Made by a program: the position numbers and the translations under genes. A DNA stretch of 64,000 bases from Heterodontus francisci (lineage: Eukaryota): the NCBI RefSeq assembly GCF_036365525.1, contig NC_090399.1, positions 32,210,430 through 32,274,429 of the forward strand, in the 5' to 3' direction. Below the pieces are notes generated by a model. That model saw only the letters and a list, made by a program, of their open reading frames with translations, made no database searches and had not been told where the DNA came from. This document shows, piece after piece, positions 2,721 through 36,094 of the stretch; the first letter of the stretch is position 1; each line of letters begins with the position of its first letter.

Positions 2721-2981
2721 GCTCTCACTCTCTCCGGTATTTCCTCACTGCCATGACTCCGATTCCCGGTTTCCCGGAGTTTGTGGCTGTTGGTTATGTG
2801 GACGATGTGCAGTTTGGTATGTACGACAGCGATCGAAAAGAGCTGATTCCCCGGGAGCAGTGGATGTTGGAGAGTGAGGGGCCAGAGGCCTGGGCACGGA
2901 AGAAAGAGCTCGCGATGGGACGGGAGCTAAATTTCAAAGCATATATTCCAATCCTCATGTCCCGATCCAACCAGTCAGGCG
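2721..2981 (+). CDS. MHC class I exon 2, alpha1 domain
   Basis: tttcag|GC...G|gtgagt, 261 nt. Translates GSHSLRYFLTAMTPIPGFPEFVAVGYVDDVQFGMYDSD...EGPEAW...LMSRSNQSG, with the N86 NQS sequon. Confidence 0.96.
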
Positions 2982-5900
2982 GTGAGTCCTCACCCTCCCA
3001 TCACACAGCCTCCTTCTATGGGTTGAGGGATTTGGGAGAGAATGGGTTGAAGCCAGGAGTTGAGCGGGTTTTGGGAGCCAGGATCTCCGAGAATAGTGGC
3101 TCTATCTCCCAGTGTAGAGGCAGCAGCCAATAGGGAGGGGCCTTACATCAGTTTTTGATGGATTTTCTTTTCCAAAAATATACTTTATTCATAAAAATTT
3201 GCAAAAATATAAGTAACCAAACAGTTCAAATTTGACATTTCGAAAAGTATAACAGAGATCAGATTCCTTCGATACAGAATGAGTTGCCTCACAACTCTTG
3301 CCATTCCATTTCATATGCAATGTACATTTGCATTACACAGAAAAAAACATTTTCTGGTGCATACAACTTGAGGGGTTTTACACAGGTTCCAGCCCCTCGG
3401 TTCACTATGACGGGAGGGCCTAACACAGTGACCTTTCCCCATTGAGCCTTTGTGGCGGCTGCCCCAAGTTTTAGTGCGTCCCTCAGCATGTAGTCCTGGA
3501 CCTTGGAATGTGCCAGTCTACAACACTCGATCGTAGACAGCTTTTTGCACTGGAAGACCAGCAAGTTTCAGGCAGACCAAAGTGCGTCTTTTATTGAATT
3601 GATTGGCCTCCAGCAGCAGTTGATGTTTATCTCGGTGTGCGTCCCTGGGACCAGACTGTTGAGCACTGACTCCTGTGTTAGAGAGCTGCTTGGGATGACC
3701 CTCGACTGTTCTTGAAGGATTTAACCGAAGGCTGGGAAGTGCTGGGTCCTTCAAATACACAGATTAGGTTCCAGGGCTTCTTTAAATACTGTCGGTTCCC
3801 CAGGAGATGTATGACAGGCAGTGTGGGCGGGGTCTCCCAGTGGGACCAGGTCTGATTGGCTGTGAGCTGGGGGATGCTGAGTGGGTTCTCCCATTGTCAG
3901 TGCGTCTGGCTACGTGAGATGGTGGGCGGGGTCTTGCAGTGGGACTGGGTCTGATTGGCTGCATGAGATGGTGGGTGGGGTCTCCCAATGGGACTGGGTC
4001 TGATTGGCTGTGTGGTAAGCAGGATCTCCCAGTGGGATCATCTTTGATTGGCTGTGTGTGTCTGATTGACAGGGATCCACACGTACCAGATGCTGATCGG
4101 CTGTGACTTGCGGGACGATGGGACCAGGACTGGGTTTGTCCAGAGGGGATGGGACGGACGAGACTTCATGAGCTTTGACAGGGATCACAAGGTGTGGGTG
4201 ACACCGGTTCCATGGGCGGAGAGCATCCAAAACAGGTGGAACGAGGACAAAGTTGACAACCTGCGGTGTGAACATTACTTGGAGGAGGAGTGTATTGAGT
4301 GGCTGAGGAAATTCCTGCAGTACGGAGAGCCAGAACTGAGAGTCGGTAAGTGCGGGGGGGAGAGACTGAGGCTGATTAAGGGCCTTCGCCACCATGGGTA
4401 TTTTACCCTTAGCTGGCGGGTGTTTGAGGCCTCACATAACCTGCTTTGTGAAAGCAGGTGGCCTCTTGCAGGCTGGTGGGGGCCCCACGGAGGGCCACCC
4501 CCGAAGCCACAACCGCCCATAATGCACAACACTCCTCCCGCCCTCCTAACTGGTGCCTCCCTTGCCTTGCCAGAGCCCGGCTGATTGTCCGTGGCAAGAC
4601 CCTAAAGACGTAACTGCTTTCCGGTGCTGACCTTCCGCTTTCAGCTATTGGCTGGAGGCAGTCCCAGCACTGGTCACCACTCCTGGTGGCACTGCAGGGC
4701 CGGGGAGCAGCTGGCTCGCTGATTGGCTAGCAGCTCCATTAGGCGGGACTTATTGCCTCAAGGAGGTGGAAGTCCCGCCCAACACCAATTAAAGGCCTGG
4801 CTCCCCAGGCTCGGCAGAGGCGGGCTCACTACCGAACCTTCGGCCGGTGGAAGGGGTCTCCCGCCCAATGAAAAATTCCAGCCTGAGAGTCAGTGAGTGG
4901 ACTGCGAGTTGGTGAATAGGGGGGTCCAGGACACAGTACCTCGAGCTTCCTGTACTGATTCCTCTCTCTCTCTCTCTCACACAGTCACTCCCGTCGTGTC
5001 ATTTACCCGTCCGGGTGATTCTAACCGTCTGTCCTGTGTCGTCACTGGGTTTTACCCACAAGCCATCGAGGTGACTCTGTGGAGAGATGGAGTGATGATC
5101 GATGAGATCCTGTCCTCTGGGATTTTACCCAATCACGACAGAACCTACCAGGTCTGGAAATGGATAGAGTTTGATCCGGAAGACCAGGCTGAGTATTCCT
5201 GCCGGGTGGAGCACAGTGGGCTGACGGAGACAATGGTGGTGATTTACGGTAAGATTGTCTCTCACTGTCAGAGGGGACTCAGCCTCGGAGCAGGAGCACA
5301 GGAGGGAGGGTCAGTGCTGAGCTACCAGCCCGGGACAGGCTGAGGCCCAGGATACAGAGAGGGAAATTAATATTAACTTTCAATGTGTCAAAATCCTCAC
5401 ACCATTTATAGAGAACTGTAATCGAGAGGACATTACAGTAATACAGTAATACAGGGCCTGGATATCTCTGAATCTCCCTCCCTCCCTCTCTCTCTGATCC
5501 TCCCTCTCTCTGAATCTCCCTCCCTCTATCTCTGTGATTCTCCCTCCCTCCCTCTCTCTGTGATTCTCCCCCCCCCCCCCTCTCTGTGATTCTCCCTCCC
5601 TCTCTCTGTGATTCTCCCCCCCCCCTCTCTGTGATTCTCCCCCCCCCCCTCTCTGTGATTCTCCCCCCCCCCCCCCGTCTGTGATTCTCCCTGTCTCTCT
5701 CTGTGATTCTCGCTCCATCGCTTTGATCTCCCCTCCCTCTCTCTGATCCTCCCTCCCTCCCTCTCTCTGATCCTCCCTCCCTCCCTCTCTCTGATCCTCC
5801 CTCCATCTTGCTCTCTGATTCTTTCTCCCTCCCTCCCTCCCTCCCTCCCTCTCTCTGATCTCCCTCCCTTCCTCTCTCTGATCTTCCCTCCCCCTCTCTC

Positions 5901-8900
5901 TCTCTGATTCTCCCTTCCTCTCTCGGATCCTCCCTCCATTTCTCTCTCGGATCCTCCCTCCATTTCTCTCTCGGATCCTCCCTCCATTTCTCTCTCGGAT
6001 CCTCCCTCCATTTCTCTCTCGGATCCTCCCTCCATTTCTCTCTCGGATCCTCCCTCCATTTCTCTCTCGGATCCTCCCTCCATTTCTCTCTCGGATCCTC
6101 CCTCCATTTCTCTCTCGGATCCTCCCTCCATTTCTCTCTCGGATCCTCCCTCCATTTCTCTCTCGGATCCTCCCTCCATTTCTCTCTCGGATCCTCCCTC
6201 CATTTCTCTCTCGGATCCTCCCTCCATTTCTCTCTCGGACCCTCCCTCCCCCTCTCTCTCGGACCCTCCCTCCCCCTCTCTCTCGGACCCTCCCTCCCCC
6301 TCTCTCTCTGACCCTCCCACTGACCCTTCCTCCCTCTCTCTCATTTTCCCTCCCTCCCTCTCTCTGTCTCTCTAATCCTCCCTTCCTCCTCTGATCTCAT
6401 TATTTTTCTCTCTCATTCATTCTCTCTCATTCTCCTCCTCTCACTGTCATTCTCCTGCTCTCTCTCTCATTGTCCCCGTCTCGATCTCGTTCTCTCTCTC
6501 TCTCTTGCTCTCATCCTTTCACTCTCTCGCTTTCATTCTCTCGCTCTCTCGCTCTCATTCTCTCACTTGCTCTTGCTCTCATTCTCTCTCTCGCTCTCAT
6601 TCTCGTTCGTTCCCTCCCCCCCCTCGTTCCCTCCCCCCGATTCTCCCCCTCATTCCCTCGCCCCCTGATTCTCCCCCTCATTCCCTCGCCCCCTGATTCT
6701 CCCTCTCGTTCCCTGATTCTCCCTCTCGTTCCCTGATTCTCCCTCTCGTTCCCTGATTCTCCCTCTCGTTCCCTGATTCTCCCTCTCGTTCCCTGATTCT
6801 CCCTCGTTCCCTCTCTGATTGGGTTGGGGAGGGTTTAAACTAAAATGGCACGGGGATGGGAACCTTTTAAAGGGGTCAGAGGAGGGGGGATCAAAGACAA
6901 GAACAAAAGACAGTAAGGGGAATAACAAAAGTGATAAGCAGAGAAATCAAGGGCCAGAATCAAACAGGGCCAGAGTGAAAAATAATGGGAAGGGACATGT
7001 AATATCAAAAAAAACAAGCCTCAAGGCTTTGTGCCTTAACGCATGGAGCATTCGCAATAAAGTGGATGAATTAATCGTGCAAATAAATGCAAACGGGTAT
7101 GATTATACCCATTGGCTATGATGGATTGGGAAACGTTACTTAAAGGGATGATGGTGGATAGGCAATGGTAAACATTCAAAGAGTGCATGGATGAACTGCA
7201 ACAATTGTTTATTCCTGTCTGGCACAAAAGTAAAATAGGAAAGGTAGCCAAACCATGGCTTACAAGGGAAATTAGAGATAACATTAGATCCAAGGAAGAG
7301 GCACACAAATTCATCAGAAAAAACAACAGACCTAAGGATTGGAAGCAGTTTAGAATTCAGCAAAGGAGGACCAAGGGATTGATTAAGAAGGGGAAACTAG
7401 AGTACGAGAGGAGCTTGCGGGGAACATAAAAACTGACTAAAAGTTTCTATAGGTATGTGAAGAGAAAAAAAATGAAGACAAATGTAGGTCCCTTACAGTC
7501 AGAAACAGGGGAATTTATTATGGGGGACAAAGAAAGAGCTGACCAGCTAAATGTGTACTTTGATTCTGTCTTCACAAAGGAGGACACAAATATCATACCA
7601 GAACTGTTGAGGAACACAGGGTTTAGTGAGAGAGAGGAACTGAAGGAAATCAGTATTAGTAGAGAAATGGTGTTGGGGAAATTGATGGGATTGAAGGCCG
7701 ATAAATCCCCACGACCTGATAATCTACATCCCAGAGTACTTAAGGAAGTGGCCCTAGAAGATTCTATAGACTCTGGAACAGTTCCGACAGATTGGAGGGT
7801 AGCTAATGTAACCGCACTATTTAAAAACGGAGGTAGAGAGAAAACAGGGAATTATAGACCAGTCAGCCTGACGTCAGTAGTGGGGAAAATTCTAGAGTCC
7901 ATTATCAAAGATTTTATAGCAGAGCACTGAGAGAACAGTGGTAGAATCAAGCAGAGTCAGCATGGATTTATGAAAGGGAAATCATGCTTGACAAATCTAC
8001 TAGAATTCTTCGAGGATGTAACTAGTAGAGTTGATGAGGGGGAGCCAGAGGATGTGGTTTATTTGGACTTTCAGAAGGCTTTCAACAAAGTTCCACATAA
8101 GAGATTAGCATGTAAAATTAAAGCGCATGGAATTGGGGGTAGTGTATTGCGATGGATAGAAAATTGGTTGGCAGGCAGGAAACAAAGAGTAGGAATAAAC
8201 GGGTCTTTTTCTGAATGGCAGGCAGTGACTAGTGGGGTACCGCTGGGATCAGTGCTGGGACCCCAGCTATTCACAATATATATATATATATATATAAATG
8301 ATTTAGATGAGGGAATTAAATGTAATATCTCCAAATTTGCAGATGACACAAAACTGGGTGGGAGGGTGAGTTGTGAGGAGGATGCAGAGAGGCTTCAGGA
8401 TGATTTGGACATGTTGAGTGAGTTGGCAAATGCATGGCAGATGCAGTATAATGTGGATAAATGTGAGGTTATCCACTTTGGTAGCAAAAACAGGAAGGCA
8501 GATTATTATCTGAATGCCTATAAACTGAGAGAGGGGAATATGCAATGAGACCTGGCTGTTCTCGTACACCAATCGCTGAAGGTAAGCAACAGGCGGTAAA
8601 AAAGGCAAATGGTACGTTTGCCTTCATAGCGAGAGGATTCGAGTATAGGAGCAGGGATGTCTTGCTACAATTATACAGGGCCTTGATGAGGCCACACCTG
8701 GAATATTGTGTGCAGTTTTGGTCTCCTTATCTGAGGAAGGATGTTCTTGCTATAGAGGGAGTGCAGCGAAGGTTTACCAGACTGATTCCTGGGATGGTGG
8801 GACTGACGTATGAGGAGAGATTGAGTCGGTTCGGATTATATTCGCTGGAGTTCAGAAGAGTGAGAGGTGATCTCATAGAAACATATATAATTCTAACAGG

Positions 8901-10910
8901 ACTTGACCGGATAGATGAAGGAAGTATGTTCCCGATCGTGGGGGAGTCCAGAACCAGGGGTCATAGTCTAAGGATACGGGGTAAACCTTTCAGGACTGAG
9001 ATGAGGAGAAATTTCTTCACCCAGAGAGTGGTGAGCCTGTGGAATTTGCTACCACAGAAAGCAGTTGAGGCCAAAGCATTGTATATTTTCAAGAAGCAGT
9101 TAGATATAGCTCTTGGGTCTAAAGGAATCAAAGGATATGGGGAGAAAGCGGGAACATGTTACTGAGTTGCATGATCAGCCATGATCATAATGAATGACGG
9201 AGCAGGCTCGAAGGGCTGAATGGCCTAATCCTATTTTCTATGTTTCCCTGATTCACTCCCTCCCTCTCTGATTCTCTCTCTCTCTCTGATTCTCTCTCTC
9301 TCATTCTCTCTCTCCAATAGGACTGAATTCTGGTTCCCAGATCCTTGTTCCTGTCGGGAGTGTACTTGGGATCCTCGGGCTGATCATCGTTCTCACCATT
9401 GTTGGTGTTATCGTCTGCAAGAGGAAAGGTAGGAATTGGAGAGAATATGAACAGGACCTCACTGGGGGAGTGGGGACTGTGGGTCCTAGAGTGGGGAAGG
9501 TCCCAGAGTGTTGGGCAAGGGGGACTGTGAGGCTCAGGATGTAGGGAGTTAGGCCCTGGGTTATGAGGAGGGGCACATATTTGGAATGGAGGGTCTGGGC
9601 TGAGGGCCCAGAGTCCGAGGAGGGGTTTATTTTGGAGCGAAGAAGCTCAGGGTGAGGGCAGGGCCTAGGGTAGTTGGAGGGACCCTGGCGTGATTGGGAG
9701 GGACTCAAGGTGGTGGGTCGGGGCTCAGGCTGAGGACGAGTGGAGCAGGATAGGGGCTCAGGCTGACGATGGGGGACTGGGATTTGGGCTCAGGATGAGG
9801 TGACCGGGATCAAGGCTCAGGGTGGGGAGGAGGGGACCGGGATCGTCGCTCAGGGTGGGGAGGAGGAGACCGGGATCGGGGCTCAGGGTGGGGAGGAGGG
9901 GACCGGGATCGTCGCTCAGGGTGGGGAGGAGGAGACCGGGATCGGGGCTCAGGGTGGGGAGGAGGAGACCGGGATCGGGGCTCAGGTTGGGGACGAGGGG
10001 ACCGGGATCGTTGCTCAGGTTGGGGACGAGGGGACCGGGTATTGGGTTCAGGATGGGGAGGAGGGGGCCGGGATCGTCGCTCAGGTTGGGGACGAGGGAA
10101 CCGGGATCAGTGCTCAGGGTGGGGATGATGGGACTGGGATCGTTGCTCAGGATGGGGACGAGGGAACCGGGATCGGGGCTCAGGATGGGGACGAGGGGAC
10201 CGGGATCGTCGCTCAGGTTGGGGACGAGGAGACTGGGATCGTCGCTCAGGGTGGGGACGAGGGGACTGGGATCAGGGCTCAGGATGGGGACGAGAGGACT
10301 GGGATCGTCGCTCAGGGTGGGGACGAGGGAACCGGGATCGTCGCTCAGGGTGGGGACGAGGGGGCCAAGATCGGGGCTCAGGGTGGAGAGGGAGGCTCAG
10401 TGTGAGGGAGGGTCCTTCTCTTGCTTTGACTCAGAGTTCCCGCCTGTCTCCTCTCTGATTTTCTGTTCTCTTGTCACTCACTGAGTATTCCTTGTTTTTC
10501 AGTGACAGGGAACAGCCGCTACAGTCCTACAAAGAGTAAGCTGACCATTATACATCGTCTGGACCTCTGTGTAACTGTGAATCATTGCTCATTGTGTGTC
10601 TGATACACTCAACAGCTCATTGCTCTGTCTCCCTCCGCCTCTGTCTCTCCATCCCTGTATCTGCAAGTCTCTCTCTATCTGTCTTTGTATCTTGCGTGCT
10701 GGCTCTATCTCTGTCTCTCTCTGTCTGTATGTGCATCTGTTTGTCTGTCTCTGTCCATCTCTCTCTCTCTCTCTCTCCATCTGTCTTTGTATCTTGCTCA
10801 CTGACTCTGTCTCTGTCTCTCTGATAGTGAACAGTTTGTTAATACCTGTCCTTCCATTAACAGTTTCTGATAAAGGGGAATCCTCATCCAGCTCCTCCGC
10901 CAGTGCCTGA
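2721..10910 (+). CDS. MHC class I heavy chain, nonclassical-looking and UAA/UBA-related. Spliced CDS join(2721..2981,4073..4345,4985..5248,9321..9428,10503..10535,10864..10910); leader exon not found
   Basis: All junctions are GT-AG and phase 1. The joined frame is open for about 328 aa of mature chain and ends in TGA at 10908-10910. Domain motifs are given in the exon entries. Confidence 0.95.
3163..3790 (-). mobile_element. Tx1/L1-type LINE 3' end in MHC intron 2
   Basis: C-terminal peptide LVFQ...ECCRLAHSKVQDYMLRDALKLGAAATKAQWGK, then AATAAA and an A-rich end on the - strand near 3165-3190. Confidence 0.7.
3820..4070 (+). repeat. About 5 diverged ~50-bp tandem units GTGGGCGGGGTCTCCCAGTGGGACTGGGTCTGATTGGCTG
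   Basis: Direct repeats visible up to the exon 3 acceptor. Confidence 0.8.
4073..4345 (+). CDS. MHC class I exon 3, alpha2 domain
   Basis: gacag|GG...G|gtaagt, 273 nt. IHTYQMLIGCDL...WDGRDFMSFD...RW...HYLEEECIEWLRKFLQYG, with the C101/C164 pair. Confidence 0.96.
4395..4882. mobile_element. Non-autonomous DNA element (MITE-like), family with GGCTGGA(A)TTTT...AAAATTCCAGCC ends
   Basis: The right end aaaaattccagcc matches the termini of the elements at 41876-42405 and 57750-58579. GC-rich interior. Confidence 0.55.
4985..5248 (+). CDS. MHC class I exon 4, alpha3 Ig C1-set domain
   Basis: cacacag|TC...G|gtaaga, 264 nt. LSCVVTGFYPQAIEVTLWRDG...LPNHDRTYQ...YSCRVEHSGL. Confidence 0.96.
5465..6819 (+). 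repeat. Polypyrimidine compound mini/microsatellite, including about 13 copies of the 24-bp unit GGATCCTCCCTCCATTTCTCTCTC and a 20-bp unit CCCTGATTCTCCCTCTCGTT
   Basis: Tandem units directly visible; almost purely C/T on the + strand. Confidence 0.95.
6820..9246 (+). mobile_element. CR1 LINE, 5'-truncated with the endonuclease internally deleted, in MHC intron 4
   Basis: CLNAWSIRNK, GNYRPVSLTS, YLDFQKAF, GVPLGSVLGP, KFADDTKL, RPHLEYCVQFWSP; ends in a CTATTTTCTATGTTTC tail; contains stops and frameshifts. Confidence 0.95.
9321..9428 (+). CDS. MHC class I exon 5, connecting peptide and transmembrane segment
   Basis: ccaatag|GA...G|gtagga, 108 nt. GLNSGSQILVPVGSVLGILGLIIVLTIVGVIVCKRK: a hydrophobic helix followed by a basic stop-transfer sequence. 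Confidence 0.92.
9770..10395 (+). repeat. G-rich 33-bp minisatellite GACCGGGATCGTCGCTCAGGGTGGGGAGGAGGG, about 18 copies, in MHC intron 5
   Basis: Tandem units; 11-aa periodicity in the ORF track (GTGIVAQGGDE). Confidence 0.95.
10503..10535 (+). CDS. MHC class I exon 6, cytoplasmic Tyr-motif exon
   Basis: tttttcag|TG...A|gtaagc, 33 nt. VTGNSRYSPTK; length and Tyr position are typical of class I exon 6. Confidence 0.88.
10620..10825 (+). repeat. (CT/CTGT)n low-complexity tract with an internal ~100-bp duplication, in MHC intron 6
   Basis: atctgtctttgtatcttgc occurs twice, at about 10677 and 10779. Confidence 0.7.
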
Positions 10911-10911
10911 G
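10864..10911 (+). CDS. MHC class I exon 7, Ser-rich cytoplasmic tail with stop codon
   Basis: taacag|TT...TGA G|gtatga. ISDKGESSSSSSASA*; a donor follows 1 nt after the stop. Confidence 0.88.
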
Positions 10912-10947
10912 GTATGAATCGTGTTTATCAGTAGTGTGAGCAGATCC

Positions 10948-13060
10948 TTTTTTTGTCCATGTTTGAAGCAAGGCTGTAATGAGGTCAGGAGCTGAGTGGC
11001 CCTGGCGGAAACCAAACTGAGCATCACTGAGCAGGTTATTGCGAAGCAAGTGCTGCTTGATGGCACTGTTGATGACACCTTCCATCACTTTACTGATGAT
11101 TGAGAGTAGGCTGATGGGGCGGTAATTGGCCAGGTTGGACTTGCCCTGCTTTTTGTGTACAGGACATACCTGGGCAATTTTCCACATTGCCGGGTAGATG
11201 CCAGTGTTGTAGCTGTACTGGAACAGCTTGGCTAGGGGTGCGGCAAGTTCTGGAGCACAGGTCTTCAGTACTATTGCCGGAATATTGTCAGGGCCCACAG
11301 CTTTTGCAGTATCCAGTGCTTTCAGTCATTTCTTGATATCACGTGGAGTGAATCGAATTGGCTGAAGTCTGGCATCTGTGATGCTGGGGACTTCACGGGA
11401 GGCCGAGATGGATCATCAACTCGGCACTTCTGGCTGAAGATTGTTGCAAATGCTTCAGCCTTGTCTTTCGCACTGATGTGCTGGGCTCCCCCATCATTGA
11501 GGATGGGATACTTGTGGAGCCACCTCCTCCAATTAGTTGTTTAATTGTCCGCCACCATTCACGGCTGGATGTGGCAGGACTGCAGAGCTTAGATCTGATC
11601 CGTTGGTTATGGGATCGCTTAGCTCTGTCTTTCTTAGCTTTGCTTACACAGTTTGGCATGCAGATAGTCCTGTGTTGTTGTAGCTTCACCAGGTTGACAC
11701 CTCATTTTGAGGTATGCCTGGTGCTGCTCCTGGCATGCCCTCCTGCACTGTTCATTGAACCAGGGTTGGTCTCCTGCCTTGATGGTAATGGTAGGGTGGG
11801 GGATATGCCGAGCCATGAGGTTACAGATTGTGGTTGAGTACAATTCTGCTGCTGCTGATGGCCCACAGCACCTCATGGATGCCCAGTTTTGCATTGCTAG
11901 ATCTGTTGTAAATCTACCCCATTTAGCACGGTGGTAGTGCCACACAACATGATGGACGGTATCCTCAATGTGAAGGTATCCTCAATGTGAAGGCGGGACT
12001 TCGTCTGCACAAGTACTGTGCGGTGGTCACTCCTACCGATACTGTCATGGACAGAATAATCTACGGCAGGCAGATTGGTGAGGACGAGGTAAAGTATGTT
12101 TTTCCCTCGTGTTGGTTCCCTCACCACCTGCCACAGACCCAGCCTACCAGCTATGTCCTTTAGGACTCGGCCAGCTCGGTCAGTAGTGGTGCTACCGAGC
12201 CACTCTTGGTGATGCACATTGAAGTCCCCCACCCAGAGTACATTTTGTGCCCTTGCCACCCTCAGTGCTTCCTCCAAGTGGTGTTCAACATGGAGGAGAA
12301 CTGACTCATCAGCTGAGGGAGGGTGGTAGGTGGTAATCAGTAGGAGGTTACCTTGCCCATGTTTGACCTGATGCCATGAGACGTCATGGGTCGATGTTGA
12401 GGACTCCCAGGGCAACTCCCTCCCTACTGTATACGACAGTGCCACCACCGCTGGTGGGTCTGTCCGGCCGGTGGGACAGGACATACCCGGGGATGGTGAT
12501 GGCAGTGTCTGGGACATTGTCTGTTAGGTATGATTCCGTGAGTATGACTATGTCAGGCTGTTGCTTGACTAGTCTGTGGGACAGCTCTCCCAACTTTGGC
12601 ACAAGCCCCCAGATGTTAGTAAGGAGGACTTTGCAGGGTCGACAGGGCTGGGTTTGCCGTTGTCGTTTCCGGTGCCCAGGTCGATGCTGGGTCGTCCGTC
12701 CGGTTTCATTCCTTTTTATTGACTTCGTAGCAGTTAGGTACAACTGAGTGACTTGCTAGGCCATTTCAGAGGGCATGTAAGAGTCAACCACATTGCTGTG
12801 GGTCTGGAGTCACATGTAGGCCAGACTAGGTAAGGACGGCAGATTTCCTTCCCTAAAGGACATTAGTGAACCAGATGTGTTTTTACAACAATCAACAATG
12901 GTTTCATGGCCATTATTAGACTAGCTTTTAATTCCAGATTTATTAATTAAATTCAAATTCCACCTTCTGCTGTGATGGGATTCGAACCCATGTCCCCAGA
13001 GAAATACCCTGGGTCTCTGGGTTACTAGTCCAGTGATAATACCAGTATGTAAATACCACT
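10948..13060 (-). mobile_element. Non-LTR retrotransposon (APE endonuclease + RT, CR1/L2-superfamily-like) with a tRNA-like 5' head, 3'-truncated
   Basis: EN: TNIWGL..DIVILTES..GDFNVHH..SDH. RT: GPDNIPAIVLKTCAPELAAPL..NYRPISLLS..QFGFRQGHS. Box-B-like GGTTCGAATCCC on the - strand at about 12977-12988. Confidence 0.9.
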
Positions 13061-13074
13061 GCCTACCCTATATG

Positions 13075-14150: not shown

Positions 14151-14489
14151 ATGGGTTATAAAGAAATTAAATGGGGTCTGAAAATGTTTATGAAAAGGAG
14201 ATAAAGTGGTTTAATCAGAGGGCCAGGTTCTGTGGGAAAAATGCGTCTCACAGGAAGTGACCTCATCGCACAGACCGATATCCAACATGGCCACCACCCC
14301 CACCTTGCCCACGCCTGGAGATAAGAGAGACAAAAACACAAAGAAATAAAGGTAAAGAGAGTGAGAGCGGGACAGAGACAGAAAGAGAGAGAGAGAGAGA
14401 AATAAAAGCAGAGTGAGGGAGGGACTGAGAGAGACAGAAACACAAAGGAAGAGAAATGAAGCATTAGCCGAGATCTTTGTGCTCAAGTC

Positions 14490-22361: not shown

Positions 22362-22718
22362 TAGAGGCCTGCTACCTGACCCGCACCTAACGTGACCCGA
22401 TGACATGTGTCGGGTTCAGGTCGGGTCGGGTCCCTCTTCCGGGTCCGGCTTTCGGGCTCGGGTTGGGTAGGGCCGGACACACACAGCCAGCGCTCTACTG
22501 GTAAGTATGAAAACTGATCCTGCGCAGTGAGTGAGTGACGTTACTATGACATCATCACGCATACGCTGTAGCTTTGTGGAGCTTCCCAGTCGGAAGGTAA
22601 GTAAAGGGATGGTCAAGTTGAGCTCGGGTCGGGCCGAGTGGGGTCAGGCTCGGGTCGGGTCGGGTCGGGCTCCGGTCCGCTGTGGATTGGTCTTTTTCCT
22701 GACCTAAGTAGGCCTTTA
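22362..22718. mobile_element. hAT-type MITE, 357 bp
   Basis: TIR TAGAGGCCTGC / GTAGGCCTTTA; 8-bp TSD ACCTGAAC/ACCGGAAC; subterminal (TCGGG)n arrays. Confidence 0.85.
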
Positions 22719-25255: not shown

Positions 25256-25960
25256 TCTAATTTTATCATTTGATGCTCCTTTCTCAAAGATCTCTTTGTG
25301 CTCCCTGAGCACTTCCCCAATGTCAGACATACTCTGACTAATCCTGACTGTAAATAACTCGGCCCAGTTTAACCATATTTTCTGAAGCCAGTTCCTTCCC
25401 GTCAGGGAGACTTTTTTCCCTCCTTCTATTACCAATGATAAGTAATAGAATGCATCATCGTATTCCACCCTAACACTAACTTCACCTCCCACTGGAATAC
25501 TGTTATTGGAATAACTAGTCAGTTTCACACCAGTTTTGTGTAAGGGAATGTGACTTCGGGACTTCTTGTACTCTCCTTCCGAGATAACAGACACTGCTGC
25601 AGCTGTATCAACGATGAAAGTAAGTTGTGAATCTCCAACTTTCATTTTTCCTGTGGGTGCTGGAATTATATCTTCAGCCCTTTTATTCTCATCTTCCATG
25701 TGCTGTTTTTCTTGTTCTCTGACGGAGTACAACTCTTGATCTTCCTGCTCGATAACATCAACTTCTGTTTCCATATCCATCATATGTGCATTCGAGGACT
25801 TCCAGGCTCCTGAACTAGCTTTAGATCGACCACCACCTCGACCTGGTGCATTGCTGCAACCTGAAGCTTTTCCGTGATCTGGAACACTACTGTTTCCTCT
25901 ACTCCTGTATGTCGTCTGGATATGACCGACTTTCCCACAGGATAGCACTTTGACTGGAAA
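25256..25960 (-). mobile_element. Gypsy-type LTR retrotransposon gag zinc-knuckle and aspartic protease fragment
   Basis: SCGKVGHI (CCHC remnant), FIVDTAAAVSVI (DTG-type active site), LTGRNWL. Confidence 0.85.
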
Positions 25961-25989
25961 TGGGAGTACTTAGATGGTTTGTGGCTCCC

Positions 25990-26260
25990 ATGACAACGGT
26001 AGTATCTAAATGTCTGACTGTGAGTCTGAACTTGGCCTGGTTCCCACTGAAATCCAGTGGACCTCCCCTGCTGAGCTGCTCCTGCACACTCTCTACTTCC
26101 TCACCCTCGTCTGCCACCTGGACACGGCTTGGTGGTCTGTGTTGCCATCTGGCAGTGAGGGGGTCCCTGGTGGGGGGGCTCTCTATGTGGGAGTCCTCCC
26201 CCTTTACATGAGGGACCTGGGGTGGAGAGTGCTGCACAGGGCAGTTCCATGTAATAGAGA
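25990..26260 (+). mobile_element. Tx1-like LINE C-terminal fragment
   Basis: GVLPLYMRDLGWRVLHRAVPCNR resembles the zf-RVT region of Tx1 ORF2. Confidence 0.65.
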
Positions 26261-26264
26261 GTGG

Positions 26265-26665
26265 GTGTGGGTGAGAGAGGCCTGACGGAATTAGAGAGAG
26301 TCCAGGGAGGGCGGAGAGAGAGATAAACAGAGAGAGAGAGAGAGAGAGTGACTGAAAGAGCAAGTGTGAGAGACTGTAAGTGGGGGGGGGGGGGGGGGGT
26401 GCGAGGTGGTGGTAGAGGGAGCTAAGAGAGAGAGGGAGTGGGGAAAGAGAGTTTGGAAGCAAGAAAGAGACTGAAAGAGAAAGTGAGGGCAAAAGACAGA
26501 AAGAGAGAGAGAGAGAGAGAGACAAATGGGGCGGCACCGGGAAAGAAAGACAGATAAAGAGAGAAAGCAAGAAGCAGAATGAGAGAGGGAGACAACGATA
26601 CAGAGACACAGACACTGAGAGAGATACAGATACACAGACACTGAGAAATTGTGCTAGAGAGAGTT
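26265..26665 (+). repeat. (GA)n-rich low-complexity tract with a poly-G run
   Basis: Directly visible. Confidence 0.85.
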
Positions 26666-26689
26666 TGAAAGTGACAAGTTATCTTTATA

Positions 26690-29290
26690 TAACTCCTTTA
26701 ATATTATAAAACTTCCCGGTGCTTCACAGAAGCATTATAAAGCAAAATTTGACACAAATGTGATATTGGATAAACAGATGGGGCGTGTGATGGAAACCGC
26801 ACCTGCCAAATGGACACATGTTAACTTCAGCATATGGAGCCCCATTTGAACGTTAACTGAACATTGATCATAACTTGCTTAAAAGGACCACAGTGGCTAA
26901 AAACATGGCTGCACATTTGCATTCTGAGAGACAGTTGCCTAGAGAGACAATGGGAGTGCTCCCTGATTCAATTAGCCAGATGGGTTTTGATAGTGATGAT
27001 CAAAAGACATTGAGAGTCATTGTCTGTGTAAGAGCCAACACTCCATACCACTCCCTCCCACCCCCAGCGCTGGCCGTCCCCACTGAGTGTGCCTAGTAAG
27101 CTTTGAAGAATCAACAACCCTCACAGGTGATGCTGTGTCAAATAAAGAGCTAGTCACATGACTAATCAACTGGCCAACCTGGGAACTGATTGAATTGTGC
27201 ATCACAGAAAAGTTTTGAGACAGACTGCAATTTTGAAGACCAAAAAGAAGCAAGGTCTCTGTCTCTCTCTCTCTTTCGCAAAGTTCCAGGGACCCACGGA
27301 AGTAAATGAAGCCTCAAGACAGAAGACCCCTGCAGCCTTCTGGTACCAGCGAAACAAATTTGAAAGTGTGCACTGGGGATCAACAGGAACTGCAAGACTT
27401 AACTTCAATCAAATATTTCACGGCAAAACTACAAATAGCAACTGAATTCCATCTACCACTTCAAACCTTCCCCCTTTAATTCTTTCTCTTCCATTGTATC
27501 TATTTGTGTGTGTGTTTATCACGTATGCACGCTAGCGTGGTTGTGTCGCGTATTTTTAGTAGTTTTAACTGAGTTAGAATGTTAGGATTAATAAACACAC
27601 ACCTTTCTTGTCTAAAGCCTGCATGATTGATTCCTTTGCAATTACAATTAGAGAGCAGTGAGAAAGGACACACTGTGGTAAAGCTTAACACACTGTGTTT
27701 TAAAAGGTAAACCCTGTTACGATCAAACCAGGAAAGTGGTGAGAGGGGAGTCTGAGATTCTTTCCTCACCTGGTCATAACAGGGTGTCTTTGAGGAGATA
27801 TAGAGAGGGATAGAGGTTTAGGGAGGGAATTTCAAGAGCTCAGGGCCCAGGCAGCCGAAAGCACAGCCAGTAATGGTGGAGTGAACTAAATTAGGGAAGA
27901 TTAACATGACAGAATAAGAGGAGTGCAGCGATGTTGGAGATTCGTAGAGCTGGAGGAGATTACAAAGATAGGGAGGGGTGTAGGGCTGGAGGAGGTTAAA
28001 GAGATAGGGAGGGGTGTAGAGGCTGGAGGAGGTTATAGAGATAGGGAGGGGTGTAGAGGCTGGAGGAGGTTATAGAGATAGGGAGGGGTGAGGCACAGAA
28101 GGGATTTAAAAGCAAGGATGAGAATTTTAAAATCGAGGTGTTGCTGGATGTGGAGCCAATGTAAGGCAGCGAGCGCAGGGGTTAATGGATGAATGGAGTT
28201 TGGTGTGAGTTAAGACATCGGCAGCAGAGTTTTGGATGTCCTCAAGTTTAAGGAGGATAGACTGTGGGAGACCAGCCAGGAATGCATTAGAATAGTCGAG
28301 TCTAGAGGTAACAAAGGAATGGATGAGGGTTTCAGCAGCAGATGAGCTGAGGCAGGGGTGGAGTCGGGAGATGTTACAGAGGTTGAAACAGACGGTCTTA
28401 GTGATGGAGTGAATATGAGCTCGGAAGCTCATCTCAGGTTGTGAACAGTCTGGTTGAGCCTCAGACAGTTGCCAGGGAGATGGATGGAGTCGGTGGCTCG
28501 AGAACAGAGTTTGTAGCAGCGCCGAAGAGAATGGCTTCAACCTTCCCGATACTTAAATGGAGGAAATTTCTGCCCTCCCAGTGCTGGATGTCAGATAAGA
28601 AGTTTAATAATTTATCAACAGTGGAGGAGTTGAGAGAGGTGGTGGTGAGGTAGAGCTGGATGTTGTCAGTGTACATGTGAAAATTAACAGTGTGTTTTCA
28701 GATGATGTGACTGAGGGGCAGCATGTAGATGAGAAATAGGAGGAGGTCAAGGATAGATCATTGGGGAACACCAGAGGTAACAGTGCAGGAGCATGAAGAG
28801 AAGCCATTGCAAGTGATTTTCTGACTATGATTAGATAGATAAACATGGAACCAGGTGAGAGCAGTCCCACCCAGCTGGAAGACAGTGCAGAGGTGTTGGA
28901 GGAGGATGGTGTGGTCAACCGTGTCAAAGGCTGCAGACAGGTCGAGAAGGATGAGGAGGGAAAGTTTACCTTTGTCACAGTCACATAGGATGCCATTTGT
29001 GACTTTGATAAGAGCTGTTTCAGTACGGTGACTGGGGCAGAAACTTGATTGGAGAATTCAAACATGGTGTTCTGGGAAAGATGGCCATGGATATTGGAGG
29101 TGACAACACATTCAAGGACTTTGGAGAGGAAAGGGAGTTTGGGGATGGGATGTTAGTTTGCAAGGATAGAGCGAGTCAAGTGTTTTTTTTTAGGAGAAGG
29201 GTGATAACAGGAGATTTTAAAGAGAGACGATAGAACCTGAGGAGAGGGAACTGTTAACAATATCAGCTAACATGGGAGACAGGAAGGGAG
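26690..29290 (-). mobile_element. L2 LINE, 3' half, interrupted by the LTR; contains a ~36-bp tandem repeat at about 27950-28090
   Basis: YTDNIQLY (YADDTQLY-like), HSFVTSRLDYSNAFLAGLP, IQNSAA. Confidence 0.88.
26786..27781 (+). mobile_element. Solo LTR, 996 bp, inserted in the 3' end of an L2
   Basis: TGTGATGG...CATAACA; 5-bp TSD GGGCG/GGGTG with one CpG transition; AATAAA near 27590. Confidence 0.85.
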
Positions 29291-29863
29291 TCGGCCCCGA
29301 CCATCCGAGCCACTGCGAAGCTGAGGCCCCGGGGCTGCCGGCTCCTGTGCCAAGCCTGACCCCACTCCCTCATCCTGGGTCCCGACTCCCTATCCTAGTC
29401 CCTCGGCTGGACTTGTCCTGATACAAACCCCCCAACACACATAACACCGTCTGACTCGGGGACAGAGGGAGAAAGTGAGTCAGCAGTGACCAGGCGGGGG
29501 GAATGGAAAGGAGATGGACTCAATAAAATGTCTCCAGAAAAAAAATCAATTCACACGTGACGATTTCCAGCATCTGCAGCATTTTGGCTTTTGTAAGAAC
29601 ATTTTTGTTTTCTGAGCAGATGTGAGGAGATGGGAATCAAATATGTGGAGATGGAGGAGAGACTGTGGCTGCTGTTACTCCTCCTATCCTGCAGGGGGTG
29701 GTGCTAGTCTTTCCCTGCTCTTGCACCACATGCCCGACACTCCCCACCACTGGGGGTATTTTCACCCCCCCAGTGATTCCTGCTGTCATTCAGTTGATGG
29801 AAGTCTGGGGATAAATATTCCATTCATGGACTGGAAACACTGGGACCCGCCTCTGGGCTGCTC

Positions 29864-32800
29864 TCAGTTGTTTTGTTTATTCATTAATTGAATAATTGAT
29901 GTAACTGGATATTTCATCGCGATCTTGACCTGCTCTCTGAACTTGGACTGAGTCACCATATAAATAAATGTGTTTGTGCAGCAACTTAAATTCAACAGCA
30001 TAAATACGATTCGTTGAAATATATAAAAAGAATCATCATCGAAGTGATATCCAATGTTAAAGTAATCTAAAACGAATCCCAACCACAGAAGTATGAAGTT
30101 ACCGGATATGGTGAAGAGTAAAATCACAGACTTCCTTCTGCTCTCCATCTCTGGGTCACTGTGATTCTCTCCCTTGCTCTGACCCCTCAGTCCCTTACGG
30201 ACTCGACTGGCCACTAAAATGTGTCTGACTGTCAGAGCGTTGAGCAACAGAATTAAAGCAAATGGGATCAATGGGGTTAAAACTGTATCAAACCTGTCAA
30301 ATCCCACCCATCCGGGCTCAGTGTAATAACTTTGCTTTGTAGAACAGAAAAATGGTACATTGTAGATTATCTTTCCAGGTTCATATTTAAAGTAGAGAGG
30401 GATGTTTTTTGAACAGAGCAGAATGCAAATTGTTGCTAGAACCACAGCCGCAGTTTTCTCGGTGCAATATTTAGTTTTCAGCTTCTGGCAACAAATGGCC
30501 ACAAATCGATCAAAGGTGAAAGTGACGGTGAACCAGACAGAACAGTCTACGGCTGCATCAATCAGGGCATTGTGAACACTACACACAGGGGTGATATCCA
30601 GGAAGCTCACCGGGAAATAGTAATAATTGATCCTGAACAATATGACCTCAGTGATAATGACCAGTAGATCCGCCGTTGCCATGGCCACCAGGTAGCGAGT
30701 GGTGCAGGTGGAGAGGCCGCACTTTCTCCGGGACAGGATCACAATCGCCAGTAAATTAACTGGAAGAGAGAGAAGGGAAAAGAGACTGGAAATTACTGAT
30801 CAAACATTCTCCGTGTCTGACCCAGACAGTAATGGCAGGACTTCAGCGCCAAAAACAGAGGGGGTTGGGTGCAGGTCAGAGGTTAAAATGTAAAAATCTC
30901 AACACCGACCCCAACTGACTTTTGACCCGCCCACTTCCGGGTTTAACGGAGTCGGGAAAGGGGACGGACAGACAACCACTTCCAGGAGGCGGGTTGGTGA
31001 TTTAAATATTTGAATGAGGCTGGAAGTCTCTGATTTAATCTGTTTTACAGGTTTACCTCTGGCCATCGGGTTTCCCCGTTATACCCCACACCACATACAA
31101 AGACACCCGGGATTGGTGAGTGGAACAGTCCCCTCCTTGGGAATCCGATCCCTCCCTCAGGATCGTCCTCCCACCCTGCGATCACATGCCACCTTCCCCA
31201 TGATAGGACACCACCACTGTGTGGGATCGGACTCCACCACCCCCAGGATTGGAACACCTATCCCAGGTTTGAACCTCACGATCCTCAGGATCGGAAACCC
31301 CAGGATAGGACTTCACCCCCTCCCCCGGGATCAGATCGCACACCCCCGGGGAACGGACTCCCCTCATCCTGTGATTGTACCCCACCACTCCCCGGAATAG
31401 CACACCACCACTCCCTGGGATCGGACCCCACCACTCCCGGGGATTGGACCCCAACAGTCCCTTGGATCACCAAGCATCTGACCTCACTGCCCCTGAAATT
31501 CGACCTCACCACCCCTAGATTGTACCTCTGCCCTACGATTGGACTCTCCTCTCTGGATGGGACCCCTGTCTGAGCTCAGACCCCCCTCTCCCAGGATCGG
31601 ACCATCCTCCTAGATCCCCCCCTTGTATCAGACACTCCACCTGCCCACTCCCCCTAACTGGACTGGGATCAAACTCCAGGATTGGAGACGCCTCCCTGGG
31701 GTTGGGGATCAAACACTCCACTTCCTCCTCCCCGGACTGGGACCACGTTCCAGGTTAGGGGGCCCCTCCCCAGGGTTGATGATCAGACACACTCCATCCC
31801 CATCATCACCTATGACCACGTTTCAGGATAGGAGCCGTCTCCCATGGGTTGAGGATCAGACATTCCCCGTCCCCCTCCACTCCTGCAGTTCTAAAACAAT
31901 CATGTAGTTGGAGAAATGTGGGGTAAAGCGGGAGGAAAGAACAAAAGGCAAGGTCTGTGATCGGGTGGAGGGCAGGAGTGATTGCATGATAAAAGGGATG
32001 ATGGTGCAAGGTGAATAGGACAATTAAAGAAACAGAGGATGGGTCCAGAGGGGGTGTAAATGGTTACAGCAGAATAACAGAGGGAGAGGGGAGCATGGAA
32101 AATCTGGCAAAGAGGAGAAGGCTCCAGTGGCCCAGAAAAGTGAGGGAGAATGGTGGGTAGACCCCAGGGGTGTGGACCAGCCTGCCAGCTGTGTACCAAT
32201 AGGGGATCCTCACCCCAAGCACCAGCCCAGACCCCCTCCACTCCCAGTGACTCTGGTGTAGCCATCCTCTATTACCAGCACAGACCATCCCAGAAAGTGG
32301 GAGCAATGGTTATAATCGGAAGTTTTTAAACTCAGTGTCGAGTTCAACAGATAATAAAAAGCCTAATTGAAAAATTCAGTTTAGTTCCTCATTGAACTTC
32401 ACTGGAAGAGTGTAGGAGGTTGGAGATAGAGAGGTCAGAGTGGGAGTGGGATGTAGAATTAAAATGACAAGTGACCAGAAGCTCAGGGTCACACTTTCAG
32501 ACTGAATGGAGGAGTTCAGCAAAGCAATCACTCAATCTGTGTTTGCTCCTCTCCCAATGTCCAGGAGATTCCATCGTGAGCAGCGAATACTGTTAATACA
32601 TTGAAAGAAGTCCAAGTAAATCACTGTTTCACCTGGAAGGAGTGTTTGGGGCCTTGGACAGTGGGAAGGGAGGAGGTAAAAGGGCAGGTGTTACATCTCC
32701 TGTGCTTGCACGGGAAGGTGCCTGGGGAAGAGGAGCTGATGTTGGGGGTGATTGAGGAGTGGGTCAGGGTGTCACAATGAGTGGGGGGAAGGGAGGGGAG

Positions 32801-35800
32801 CAGAATATATGTTTGGTGTTGGACTTATCTGGATGTGACAGAAATGTTGGCTGATGATGTGTTGAATGTGGAGGCTGGTGAGGTGGAAGGTGAGGACAAG
32901 GGGAACCTTATCATGGTTCTGTCAGGGAAGGAAGGAGTGAAGGCAGTAACATGGGAAATGGGATGGAAAAGGTCGAGGACCCTGTTAACCTCAGTGGAGG
33001 GGAAGCCTCGGATGAGGAATAATGAAGACATTTCAGAAGCACTGGTATGGAAGGTAGCATTAGCAGAACAGATGGAACGGAGGTGGAGAAACTGGGAGAA
33101 TGGAACAGAGTCTTTCCAGGAAGCCTGGTGGGAGGAAGTATAACCAAGGTAGCTGTGGGATTCGGTGGGATTATAGTAGATATTGGTGGGCAGCCAATCC
33201 CCTGAAATGGAGGTAGAGAAGTCGAGGAAGGGAAGGGAAGTGTCAGAGACGGACCATGTGAAGACGAGAAAGGGATGGAAATTCGAAGCAAAGTTGATGT
33301 AATTTTCCTGTTCCAGGCAAAAGAAGGAATTGTCACCAGCACAGTCATCAAAGTATCAGAAAAATATGTGAAGGAGGGGAGCTGAGTAGGATTGGAACAA
33401 AGAATGGTCCACGCATCCTACACAAAGGCAGCATAGCTAGGACACATACAGCTCCCATAGAGACAAAATTTGAGTGTGAAATATCCCAGTGTTAACACCA
33501 GAGGTCCACACACCTATACTTTACAACAGGGTCCATGCACATGAGCCTGCGAGGGTTTTCATTCCCCGACCAGAGCCAGTGAGGAAGAGAGGAGTTCCAG
33601 TGGGAATGGTGAGTGAATGAAAAAAAATGAATCAATTCCAAATGGGGCCCTCGGAATGTCCCAGCAGGAGATGGTGCAGGGAAGCTGTGCAAGATCCCAT
33701 CCTCTGTGAGTTTAAGGAGAGCTCGGGTTTACTGGACTTTGGAGCAGAGAGGGGCAGACTGACATGGACAGAAATGTAAATGGAATTCTGCAGCAGAGCC
33801 CCGAGCTCAGAAGGAAGGAAGTTTCGTGTGTGGTGGGATAGTCGGGGCCAGAATGACCCAGTGGATGAGGATTCAGAGCCTGAAGAAGGGAGTGAGATCT
33901 CTGAGGGGAGGAACTAAACTGTGAAATAATAGTGAATAAATTCAATGAAAAAAACTTCAAGATATTTAAGGTAGAAAATGGGGAGATATTTGAGAAAGTA
34001 ATCAGAGAGAGAGAGCAAACTTTTGGTTCAGATAAATTGCATCCACACATACGAAAAAACAAAGGTAGCGATAGCAGAGGCACGATTATCTGCCCATTAA
34101 TAATCATCAGATTAGGGAAAGGTGCCAGGGGACTGACAGACAGTTAATGTGATTTTTGTATTTAAAAGGGGCTTCATGAGATAGATTCCTGTGATGAGAA
34201 GATTGTTGTATGAAGAGAGATTGAGTAGAATGGGCTTATATTCTCTGGGGTTTAGGAAAATGAGAGGTGGTTTCTTTGAAATATACAAGATTATGAGAGG
34301 GATTGACAGGGTAGATGAGGGACTGTTTCCCCCTGGCTGGAGAGTCTAGAATTAGGGTGCAGAGTCTCAGGATAAGGAGTCAGCCATTTCTCACTGAGAT
34401 GAGGAGAAATTTCTTCACTCAGAGGATTGTGAATCTTTGAAATTGTCCACTCCATAGTGCTGTGGATATTCAGTCATTGAGTATATTAAAGACTGAGCTC
34501 AGTAGATTTTGGGAGTCTAAGGGAATCCTGGGATAATTGTTTTGTGTGGGAATGTGGAGTTGAGGTTGTGGATCAGCCGTGATCTTCATAAATTGTGGAG
34601 CAGGTTCGAGGGGCCGAATGGTCTACTCCTGCTCTTAATTCTTATGTTTCATTCTTATGTGATTCATTACAAACAATAAATCTTGGATTGTATTCTGTAA
34701 GTATATTTATTCAATCAGTAAATAAGCAAAAATAGCATTCGGCAAAACAGACTGAGGAGCGGACAGTGATAAACACACTTGACCAGTACAATTAAACTCT
34801 CACAATCTGACAGCATCCTAACAACACCTTCAAATTACATTTGCTCATCAGAATTCTACTGGAAGTTTCATCAGTTCATTCTGAGTAATTATTCACACAC
34901 CGCCACACCCTCTGTCTCTCTCCCATTCCTCCTCCATCTCCTTCTAGTTTTCCTCCTCTGTCTCTTCCTCTGTCATTCCTCTATCTCTCTTCATTGACTC
35001 TTACTTTCTTCATTATTCTTTTCTCACACCATTCATCCAAATATTATGCACCTGCATTCTGTTCATCTGCCCCATGTTCGATAATCCAATTCTCAGAGTC
35101 AGTTTGTTCAATGATAAACAATTCACAGAGGCTATATCATTTCTACAGCTCACACAAATCTCCACCAGTTCATCTACACTGTTCACTTCATCTACAATAC
35201 ATGGAATAAACAGAATCCAATAAATCTTCCAGACATAGCTCACAATAAATGAAATTCCTTCTCCTGGAATTATAAAGTACAATGATAGATGGTGGGATTG
35301 TTAAATTCACAGAACACCAACATCCCTGGCGCAGCTTCTAATCTACAGATAAATAGAAGGACTCATGATTCCAACAGATACAGTGTAAACTAATACAACA
35401 TCACATCAATCCTTTCCATTTTACAATGTTGTCCAGTGATAGTGAATTCAGCCACAGTGAAACAGGGAGGGAGATATGAAAGAGTCAGCAGCAAACTCAG
35501 TTCAGTAACCAGCCATCTGAAGCAGCGTCAGACACACACACAGAATGAAATAATATTTCATAACAGTGATAACCAATAAATATGCTGAAATCCCAGTTAA
35601 ACTGAACCATGTCATTGGGAGGGAGGACATTGAGCTGCCTCCTTATAACACTGAGACTGTGAGCTGTCCCCATTATCCATCACTGAAACCATGTCGATAA
35701 AGATATTCCAGGACAGATTCGTTCCACATTAGCCGGCTAACAAATTCTGATAGTCTTATTCCTGCTCTTTAGTCCAGACACCTGATTCCAATACATTCAG

Positions 35801-36094
35801 TACAGAGAATAATCCAGGAACATTAACAGGGTTGGATAACCGAACATCATTGGAGAAATAATGAAGCTGCTACAAGTCATAAAGAACAGAGACTGAGGAC
35901 ATTCCATCATTCAACTGTTGGAACGAACAGGCAGCTTTGTAAAACATAAAGTGAGAAATAATATCAAGTACAGCAGCATAGTTAACACCATTTTACGCCA
36001 TTACCAGAAGAAATATCGACTTACCAGGAACCCCAACAGCTGCAAGAATTGGATAGTAAATGTCTTCTATCTGATGGATTACTGGATATACCAT
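29864..36094 (-). CDS. Class A GPCR, GPR139/GPR142-like, 321 aa; complement(join(29864..30759,36025..36094))
   Basis: Exon 1 MVYPVIHQIEDIYYPILAAVGVP G|gtaagt splices in frame to ttccag|TT-NLLAIVILSR. Seven TM segments: GVPVN, LVAMATADLL, SVWFTVTFTFDRFVAIC, NIPLYF, PFALILLLN, LLFTISGNFILLW, CCTNTFIY. Confidence 0.93.
30834..31880. repeat. MITE-like element end followed by a C-rich diverged tandem array (CCACCACTCCCCGGGATCGGACC-like) in the GPCR intron
   Basis: Recurrent GGATC...ACCCC units at 31130-31880; ggcaggacttcagcgcc start resembles the other MITE ends. Confidence 0.55.
31905..33470 (-). mobile_element. Penelope-like element, decayed RT thumb/linker and 3' region
   Basis: - strand SLPFLDFS...NIYYNPTESHSYL...FSQFL...MSSLFLIRGFPSTEV. 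Confidence 0.75.
34170..34660 (+). mobile_element. CR1 3' end
   Basis: YEERLSRMGLYSL, EMRRNFFTQRIVNL; tail cttatgtttcattcttatg. Confidence 0.85.

Follow-up and report, generated by a model that had tools for sequence, protein, structure and literature searches.

A window of 64,000 nucleotides from the horn shark Heterodontus francisci (positions 32,210,430 to 32,274,429 of NC_090399.1, here called C29, in a 6.0-Gb assembly) contains a nonclassical class I gene of the UBA lineage on the plus strand and a two-exon class A G-protein-coupled receptor (GPCR) gene on the minus strand, both intact and convergent. A reading made from the letters alone, hereafter the sequence-only reading, had proposed that the two might be a co-duplicated, possibly co-expressed module, with two unstable families in a duplication-prone region as its fallback. 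The fallback fits best. Members of a GPCR family with thousands of copies form a 10-Mb tandem array here, and the two genes are probably neighbors because the UBA gene stands at its left edge; they are likely no functional pair. The window pair itself is ordinary; what is new lies at the level of the region and of the family.

The receptor belongs to a large tandem family with birth-and-death turnover, as in a chemoreceptor-type repertoire. The array that begins at the window spans 10.3 Mb (C29 32.10 to 42.42 Mb) and holds at least 167 copies at a median spacing of 51.5 kb, 80 on the plus strand and 87 on the minus strand. An exon 2 search that scored 132 of 13,304 candidates placed all 132 on C29 between 32.1 and 42.3 Mb at 80 to 100% identity, 10 of them with internal stops. 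Across the genome, a 23-nucleotide pattern from transmembrane segment 3 (TM3) had at least 3,594 exact matches and its reversed control had none; this count is a floor in that, in a sister subfamily, only 4 of 30 copies carry the pattern, although duplicates on unplaced contigs may inflate it. Family matches lie on at least 29 chromosome-numbered contigs (C3 to C49), and class I genes are nearby on only one of these. Of 20 loci sampled among the first 100 TM3 matches listed, 14 had an intact exon 2, as did 15 of 29 loci from a second pattern (30 sampled, 1 without an alignment). Divergent subfamilies, down to ∼52% identity, remain intact, and relatives of the receptor are found in sharks, skates, and rays.

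The sequence-only reading had described two intact host genes that converge about 19 kb apart with transposable-element debris between them, and that description is accurate. Splice sites are canonical in both genes (AG/GT around the class I exons), and the frames are open. The coding exons and the gap are as follows, in window positions.

2721..2981, plus strand: alpha1 exon of the UBA gene (Pfam MHC_I), resembling the nurse-shark UBA sequence AAC60347 in the PMC10751288 supplement
4073..4345, plus strand: alpha2 exon (Pfam MHC_I), aligned with nurse-shark classical 6LUP
4985..5248, plus strand: alpha3 exon (Pfam C1-set), ∼80% identical to nurse-shark UBA alpha3 AAC60347
9321..9428, plus strand: transmembrane exon, from splice sites and an open frame, and in NCBI model P0134/XP_067865790.1
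10503..10535, plus strand: cytoplasmic exon, from splice sites and an open frame, and in NCBI model XP_067865790.1
10864..10910, plus strand: last coding exon and stop, matching the 344-amino-acid NCBI model XP_067865790.1
10911..29863, no strand: intergenic gap, mostly repeats, with no colinear low-copy homology in its middle to other UBA-GPCR intervals
29864..30759, minus strand: receptor exon 2, 297 codons that cover most of TM1 and all that follows to the C terminus, with a DRF motif (Pfam 7tm_1)
36025..36094, minus strand: receptor exon 1, with the ATG, a short N terminus, and the start of TM1, followed by a phase-1 intron of 5.3 kb

From stop to stop the gap measures 18,953 bp; 94% of it has a repeat match and 80% has three or more in a comparison with 1.66 Mb of fetched chromosome regions. 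Real as it is, the arrangement is not beyond chance. From a random point in the array, the next GPCR lies within 19 kb with a probability of 0.30 and is convergent with a probability of 0.54, and both hold with a probability of 0.16. The 3′ receptor neighbors of eight UBA loci are convergent in five cases (P = 0.44) and lie at a median distance of 29.5 kb (P = 0.37), so that neither distance nor orientation departs from chance; a ninth UBA locus (42.73 Mb), with no 3′ receptor in the 70 kb read, was excluded, which favors the module. The alternation of class Ib and receptor genes that had been suggested was not seen, as UBA-adjoining receptors make up 10 of the 167 listed array copies. The five closest paralogs of the window receptor (91 to 92%) are at least 0.4 Mb from any class I match among the matches listed, and no receptor was found within 200 kb of two UBA-like genes at 46.1 to 46.25 Mb.

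Comparison of linked pairs gave no congruence either. Distances among UBA genes and among their neighboring GPCRs were uncorrelated (Mantel rho = 0.13, P = 0.22, 8 pairs), with rho values of −0.02 (7 pairs) and −0.04 (6 pairs) after one recent duplicate and broken receptors were removed. At 32.07 Mb, a UBA pseudogene differs from the window UBA gene by 1.7% (alpha2 only), and its receptor neighbor is 11.1% diverged and in tandem orientation; the UBA genes at 40.36 and 42.33 Mb are 2.7% apart and their receptor neighbors 10.0%. Homology of the window UBA gene to three paralogous UBA loci stops at position 10949, and the shared pieces near the window receptor also accompany receptors that have no UBA neighbor. 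Because distances, orientation, divergences, and flank homology follow no pairing, the UBA gene and the adjacent receptor are likely not a unit; they appear to duplicate independently and to form no functional pair. The only co-duplicated UBA-receptor pair, the 42.45/42.84 Mb duplicate, has a broken receptor.

Co-duplication, absent as a rule from the UBA-receptor pair, was found in a different class I lineage, within a recent segmental amplification 25 to 30 Mb away.

C29:57.35-62.78 Mb and contigs C1655, C1290, and C815, tail-to-tail: ten units of a UAA-2-like class I gene and a receptor, three of the copies being on unplaced contigs

The ten class I copies have alpha2 domains that are 98 to 100% identical and keep the classical alpha2 anchors, and their alpha3 resembles nurse-shark UAA-2 by eye. 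Each has one receptor of one type, convergent and 58 to 90 kb downstream (10 of 10); these receptors are likewise 98 to 100% identical and intact or nearly so, with one truncated. This is one-to-one co-duplication in which the copies are not independent events, and it is best read, from the sequences, as the recent segmental duplication of one block.

In the strongest version of the original proposal, every class Ib gene would be paired with a receptor that is duplicated and expressed with it, and the class Ib molecule would escort or tune the receptor as has been proposed for rodent H2-Mv (H2-M10/M1) molecules and type 2 vomeronasal receptors (V2Rs). We regard this as very unlikely. The convergent and intact window pair, the five convergent UBA neighbors out of eight, and the ten UAA-2-like pairs speak for it. 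Set against them are the hundreds of receptors per class I gene, the incongruent distances, the broken receptor in the sole co-duplicated UBA pair, and the fact that the ten near-identical pairs are one event copied, with only 14 of the 59 listed receptors of their zone adjoining a class I gene. The rodent analogy is itself weak: V2Rs are class C receptors, whereas the window receptor is class A (7tm_1), and to our knowledge the H2-Mv/V2R link does not rest on gene adjacency. In both cases a single genome combines the expansion of class Ib genes with that of a GPCR family, but the mouse link is neuronal co-expression, as described in passages of PMC11643622.

Selection on the receptor was assessed by pairwise counts in 36 disjoint pairs among 76 intact copies, with the more divergent subfamilies excluded. 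With kappa fixed at 3 and no correction for multiple hits or gene conversion, the ratio of nonsynonymous to synonymous proportions of differences (pN/pS) was 0.69 for the whole of exon 2, 0.45 for 90 intracellular codons (0.29 against gene-wide pS), and 1.32 for 28 pocket positions (pN 0.149, pS 0.112; 1.82 against gene-wide pS), which we presume from generic receptor numbering to line the binding pocket. None of 10,000 random sets of transmembrane positions reached the pocket rate. A diversifying pocket, as predicted by that presumed numbering, together with a conserved signaling face is the pattern of a chemoreceptor-type family, and fast-changing predicted pockets suggest a likely role in chemical sensing. 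An olfactory or other chemosensory function would be somewhat favored, sensing by immune cells is possible but less expected, and some other role seems doubtful.

The same data bear on whether the copies are mostly selfish or neutral cargo of little function, amplified by repeats in a 6-Gb genome, and on whether assembly duplication accounts for part of the count. Broken copies are common (6 of 20 and 14 of 29 sampled), the overall pN/pS is 0.69, identical copies occur on unplaced contigs, and flanking repeats are held in common. However, the constraint on intracellular codons, the pocket ratio of 1.3 to 1.8 that no random set reached, the intact state of subfamilies as divergent as ∼52%, and the presence of family members in sharks, skates, and rays make this explanation extremely improbable.

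The earlier label of the receptor as GPR139-like holds for a GPR139/142-related group and fails for GPR139 itself. A profile of the family has human GPR139 as its best solved match (PDB; E value of 7e−16, 61 bits versus 43 for the next), by which the receptor is assigned to that group. The single window protein scores 27.5 bits against GPR139, below the alpha1A adrenoceptor. Residues E108, F109, H113, P243, and R244 in TM3 and TM6 of GPR139, whose numbering and role in ligand binding we take as given, are replaced at the aligned receptor positions. Because of this low single-protein score and these differing site residues, the database label GPR139 is the nearest name only. Compared with GPR139 and GPR142 (PDB 7VUG and 9M42), the family shares the best solved profile match and differs in its site residues, its low identity, and its thousands of shark copies instead of a low copy number, and by these sequence comparisons it is not a GPR139 ortholog.

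Salamanders, coelacanth, and teleosts have low-copy proteins labeled “probable GPR139” (P0246, P0287, P0250, P0252, and P0275), which are closer relatives than GPR139 but more distant than the shark, skate, and ray members and placed differently from the shark family. In a protein tree of 155 sequences, which included no GPR139, support was too weak either to favor or to oppose a single clade of the copies linked to the major histocompatibility complex (MHC). Expansions of nematode srw and invertebrate peptide-receptor-like genes offer another comparison: atlas look-alikes scoring 0.94 to 0.96 include clusters with PF10324 (7TM_GPCR_Srw) in 12 to 98% of members, but this is a likeness without an alignment, and the window protein has no Srw match in Pfam. 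According to passages of PMC8514136, GPR139/142 and the protostome receptors for MIP, FMRFamide, and myosuppressin have a common origin. In NCBI model XP_067865099.1 (“neuropeptides capa receptor-like”), the receptor is spliced to a repeat at 25783 to 26100 and does not end at its own stop at 29864; we treated this as an annotation artifact.

Beyond the window, receptor arrays occupy much of the class I interval of C29. A second array (46.63 to 49.55 Mb, at least 36 copies) lies between a divergent UBA-like group and a class Ib group at 49.57 to 50.7 Mb, and a third (54.8 to 63.7 Mb, at least 59 copies) is mixed with class I genes. Together, the three arrays take up ∼22 Mb of the 35 Mb between 32 and 67 Mb and hold at least 262 copies. 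Other C29 arrays, at 17.9 to 18.9 and 22.6 to 23.2 Mb, have no class I match nearby, and the same is true of arrays on other chromosomes. In the sawfish, the MHC table of PMC10751288 places 10 “probable GPR139” genes (13.38 to 13.68 Mb) between MHC-Ib groups at 13.17 to 13.29 and 13.96 to 14.22 Mb, with 3 more near C4 and TRIM39; a term search of the main text of that paper returned neither “GPR” nor “G protein.” For zebra-shark receptor P0164, apparently on a class I contig, a single clear match stands out in the horn shark, at C29:49.26 Mb (79%), the next (70%) being beside it and the remainder at or below 59%. The smooth-hound receptor P0193 matches best on C39 and not C29, and the basking-shark receptor P0095 on C48 with C29 close behind. 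Linkage of class I genes and related receptors in the MHC region, which the sequence-only reading had raised, is thus indicated by sequence in more than one elasmobranch, though not as a dedicated pair in the window.

Such linkage might reflect a partnership at the level of the region, in which selection keeps receptor arrays in the elasmobranch MHC so that class I and receptor haplotypes are inherited together and the receptors read MHC-dependent peptides or odors. The extent of the arrays, the sawfish layout of class Ib, array, and class Ib, the apparent ortholog of P0164 at C29:49.26 Mb, and the family members apparently on class I contigs in basking shark, smooth-hound, and zebra shark are consistent with this, as are the position of GPR139, the nearest solved relative, in a peptide-receptor clade (passages of PMC8514136) and the tracking of class I by MHC-linked olfactory receptor (OR) diversity in pigs (abstract of PMC11800647). 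Nevertheless, with the family spread over at least 29 chromosome-numbered contigs and at least 3,594 loci, the 262 copies listed in the class I interval make up a minority, two C29 arrays have no class I match nearby, P0193 and P0095 match best elsewhere, and the MHC also gathers TRIM, zinc-finger, and tRNA arrays. We therefore consider a regional partnership unlikely.

The preferred reading, that proximity follows from array growth, would run as follows. In the MHC of the ancestral elasmobranch, a few receptors may already have had class Ib genes around them. In the horn shark, tandem and segmental duplication of a cassette of gene plus flank would have multiplied them, and the growing arrays would have pushed flanking class I genes apart, sometimes carrying one along, as in the 42.45/42.84 Mb duplicate and the ten UAA-2-like copies. 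The family would act as a chemoreceptor-like repertoire with a conserved G-protein-facing side and a pocket diversified for small molecules or peptides, and UBA would do what class Ib molecules ordinarily do, presenting T cells with a ligand, here a nonstandard one.

Several observations weigh against this account. Each of the three arrays between 32 and 64 Mb has class I genes at its ends or among its copies, and the array at 46.63 to 49.55 Mb meets a class I gene tail-to-tail at either end (at 70 and 17 kb); passive inflation explains class I genes at array ends but does not predict their orientation. Every one of the ten UAA-2-like genes retains a convergent receptor that is intact or nearly so. 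The lists of array copies are lower bounds, the eight UBA pairs give little test power, and gene conversion could erase congruence. For the chemoreceptor part of the account, the AlphaFold model of exon 2 (predicted local distance difference test score of 51, predicted template modeling score of 0.32) is too poor to confirm which residues line the pocket.

The class I gene has the full layout in open frame, from leader through alpha1, alpha2, alpha3, and transmembrane to cytoplasmic exons. It is complete because its leader exon, diverged and found by DNA search at C29:32,205,493, lies 4.9 kb left of the window; the last exon was one of several candidates and was settled by the 344-amino-acid NCBI model. 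Compared with 6LUP, and in what we take to be HLA numbering, Y7, R84, W147, and Y159 are kept, Y59A, T143I, K146R, and Y171F are changed, and the N86 sequon of alpha1 is retained, so that the classical peptide anchors are partly lost. The alpha2 domain is 71% identical to horn-shark UBA AAC60348.1/O19480, and the identity of ∼80% in alpha3 is a hand count against AAC60347 as printed in the supplement of PMC10751288. By eye, and with no tree, the gene is nearer to the reference UBA than to the UAA, UDA, UFA, and UCA references of that printed set. The nonclassical assignment made earlier is borne out by these comparisons, which place the gene in the UBA lineage, already known from passages of PMC12562908 as a class Ib family that arose from UAA and expanded. 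It resembles the known elasmobranch UBA genes (AAC60347 and AAC60348.1/O19480) in domain and exon layout, multiple copies, and partial loss of anchors. It differs in that a 10-Mb receptor array interrupts the set of nine horn-shark UBA loci; in the account of PMC10751288, c4 and rxrb flank the UBA cluster.

An extra cysteine in the alpha2 helix (NLRCEHY, within window 4075 to 4344) is common to the copies at 40.36, 42.33, and 42.73 Mb. Gene-specific minisatellites in intron 1 (window 1500 to 2700) and in the transmembrane-cytoplasmic intron (9770 to 10400) are also common to paralogs, whose intron 1 reaches ∼60 kb. A 39-bp tandem repeat is expanded just upstream of the leader, at C29:32,204,929-32,205,400, and is absent from the query paralog.

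Class I alpha2 matches fall on C29 in 35 of 38 cases, in line with PMC10751288. UBA loci with alpha3 at 91% or more number 8, plus 1 broken copy, at 32.07 to 32.90, 40.36, and 42.30 to 42.84 Mb, and 3 more divergent UBA-like loci lie at 46.1 to 46.5 Mb. The copies at 42.30 to 42.36 and 40.33 to 40.38 Mb are interrupted by assembly gaps and share a 6-codon alpha1 deletion; the alpha3 exon of the former is inverted between two gaps, a likely scaffolding error. A group of 3 to 5 class I loci at C29:66.26-67.04 Mb, UAA-like in alpha2 and alpha3, was considered as UBA and rejected, with alpha2 domains 69 to 83% like the classical-type query; it is likely, on sequence, the class Ia region. Six C1-set exons, 33 to 42% like UBA alpha3, lie off the class I chromosome at C49:13.13-13.21 Mb and are possibly W-type genes.

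The remainder of the window is repetitive. A Pfam scan of ∼50 other open reading frames among the 186 listed gave 9 matches, all to reverse transcriptase or endonuclease, and none to a host gene family.

6820..9165, plus strand: fragments of a long interspersed element in the alpha3-transmembrane intron, with RVT_1 at 7931 to 8545 and open reading frames
25319..26258, minus strand: repeat element accompanying the GPCR 3′ flank, also found 9 kb downstream of a GPCR copy without a UBA neighbor
28566..28763, minus strand: element of the GPCR cassette 3′ flank, which 7 of the 13 GPCR copies in the fetched regions carry 0.5 to 1.7 kb downstream

Among known arrangements, the mammalian MHC-linked OR clusters come closest; they are likewise birth-and-death arrays of class A GPCRs in or beside the MHC with most of the family elsewhere. 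The shark receptor is not an OR (Pfam 7tm_1 only, two exons), and it is interleaved with class I genes over 35 Mb and not just flanking them. At its boldest, the comparison would make this an unrecognized seventh vertebrate chemoreceptor family in cartilaginous fish, thousands of copies large in the horn shark, with MHC subfamilies that have stood among class Ib genes since the shark-ray split, are inherited as haplotypes, and detect MHC-dependent peptides or odors as an independent and much larger counterpart of the mammalian clusters; we give this only a small chance of being right. Our search of the literature found no paper on the receptor family or on its interleaving with the MHC, most subscription journals and bioRxiv supplements being outside its reach, and PMC10620051 makes no mention of GPCRs.

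Passages of PMC10869828 give cartilaginous fish 20 to 62 olfactory-type receptor genes, and passages of PMC8455134 speak of a paucity of GPCRs; the largest OR count in the passages of both is 2,399. If the family described here is sensory, its at least 3,594 loci, half or more of them intact in small samples, and its diversifying predicted pocket would overturn the few-receptor picture of cartilaginous fish. The gene pair in the window adds nothing beyond the regional and family-level picture. That picture adds a large unreported component to the class I region of elasmobranchs, the region that serves as the model of the ancestral MHC, and with the arrays MHC-linked chemical recognition can be tested concretely in the oldest lineage of jawed vertebrates.

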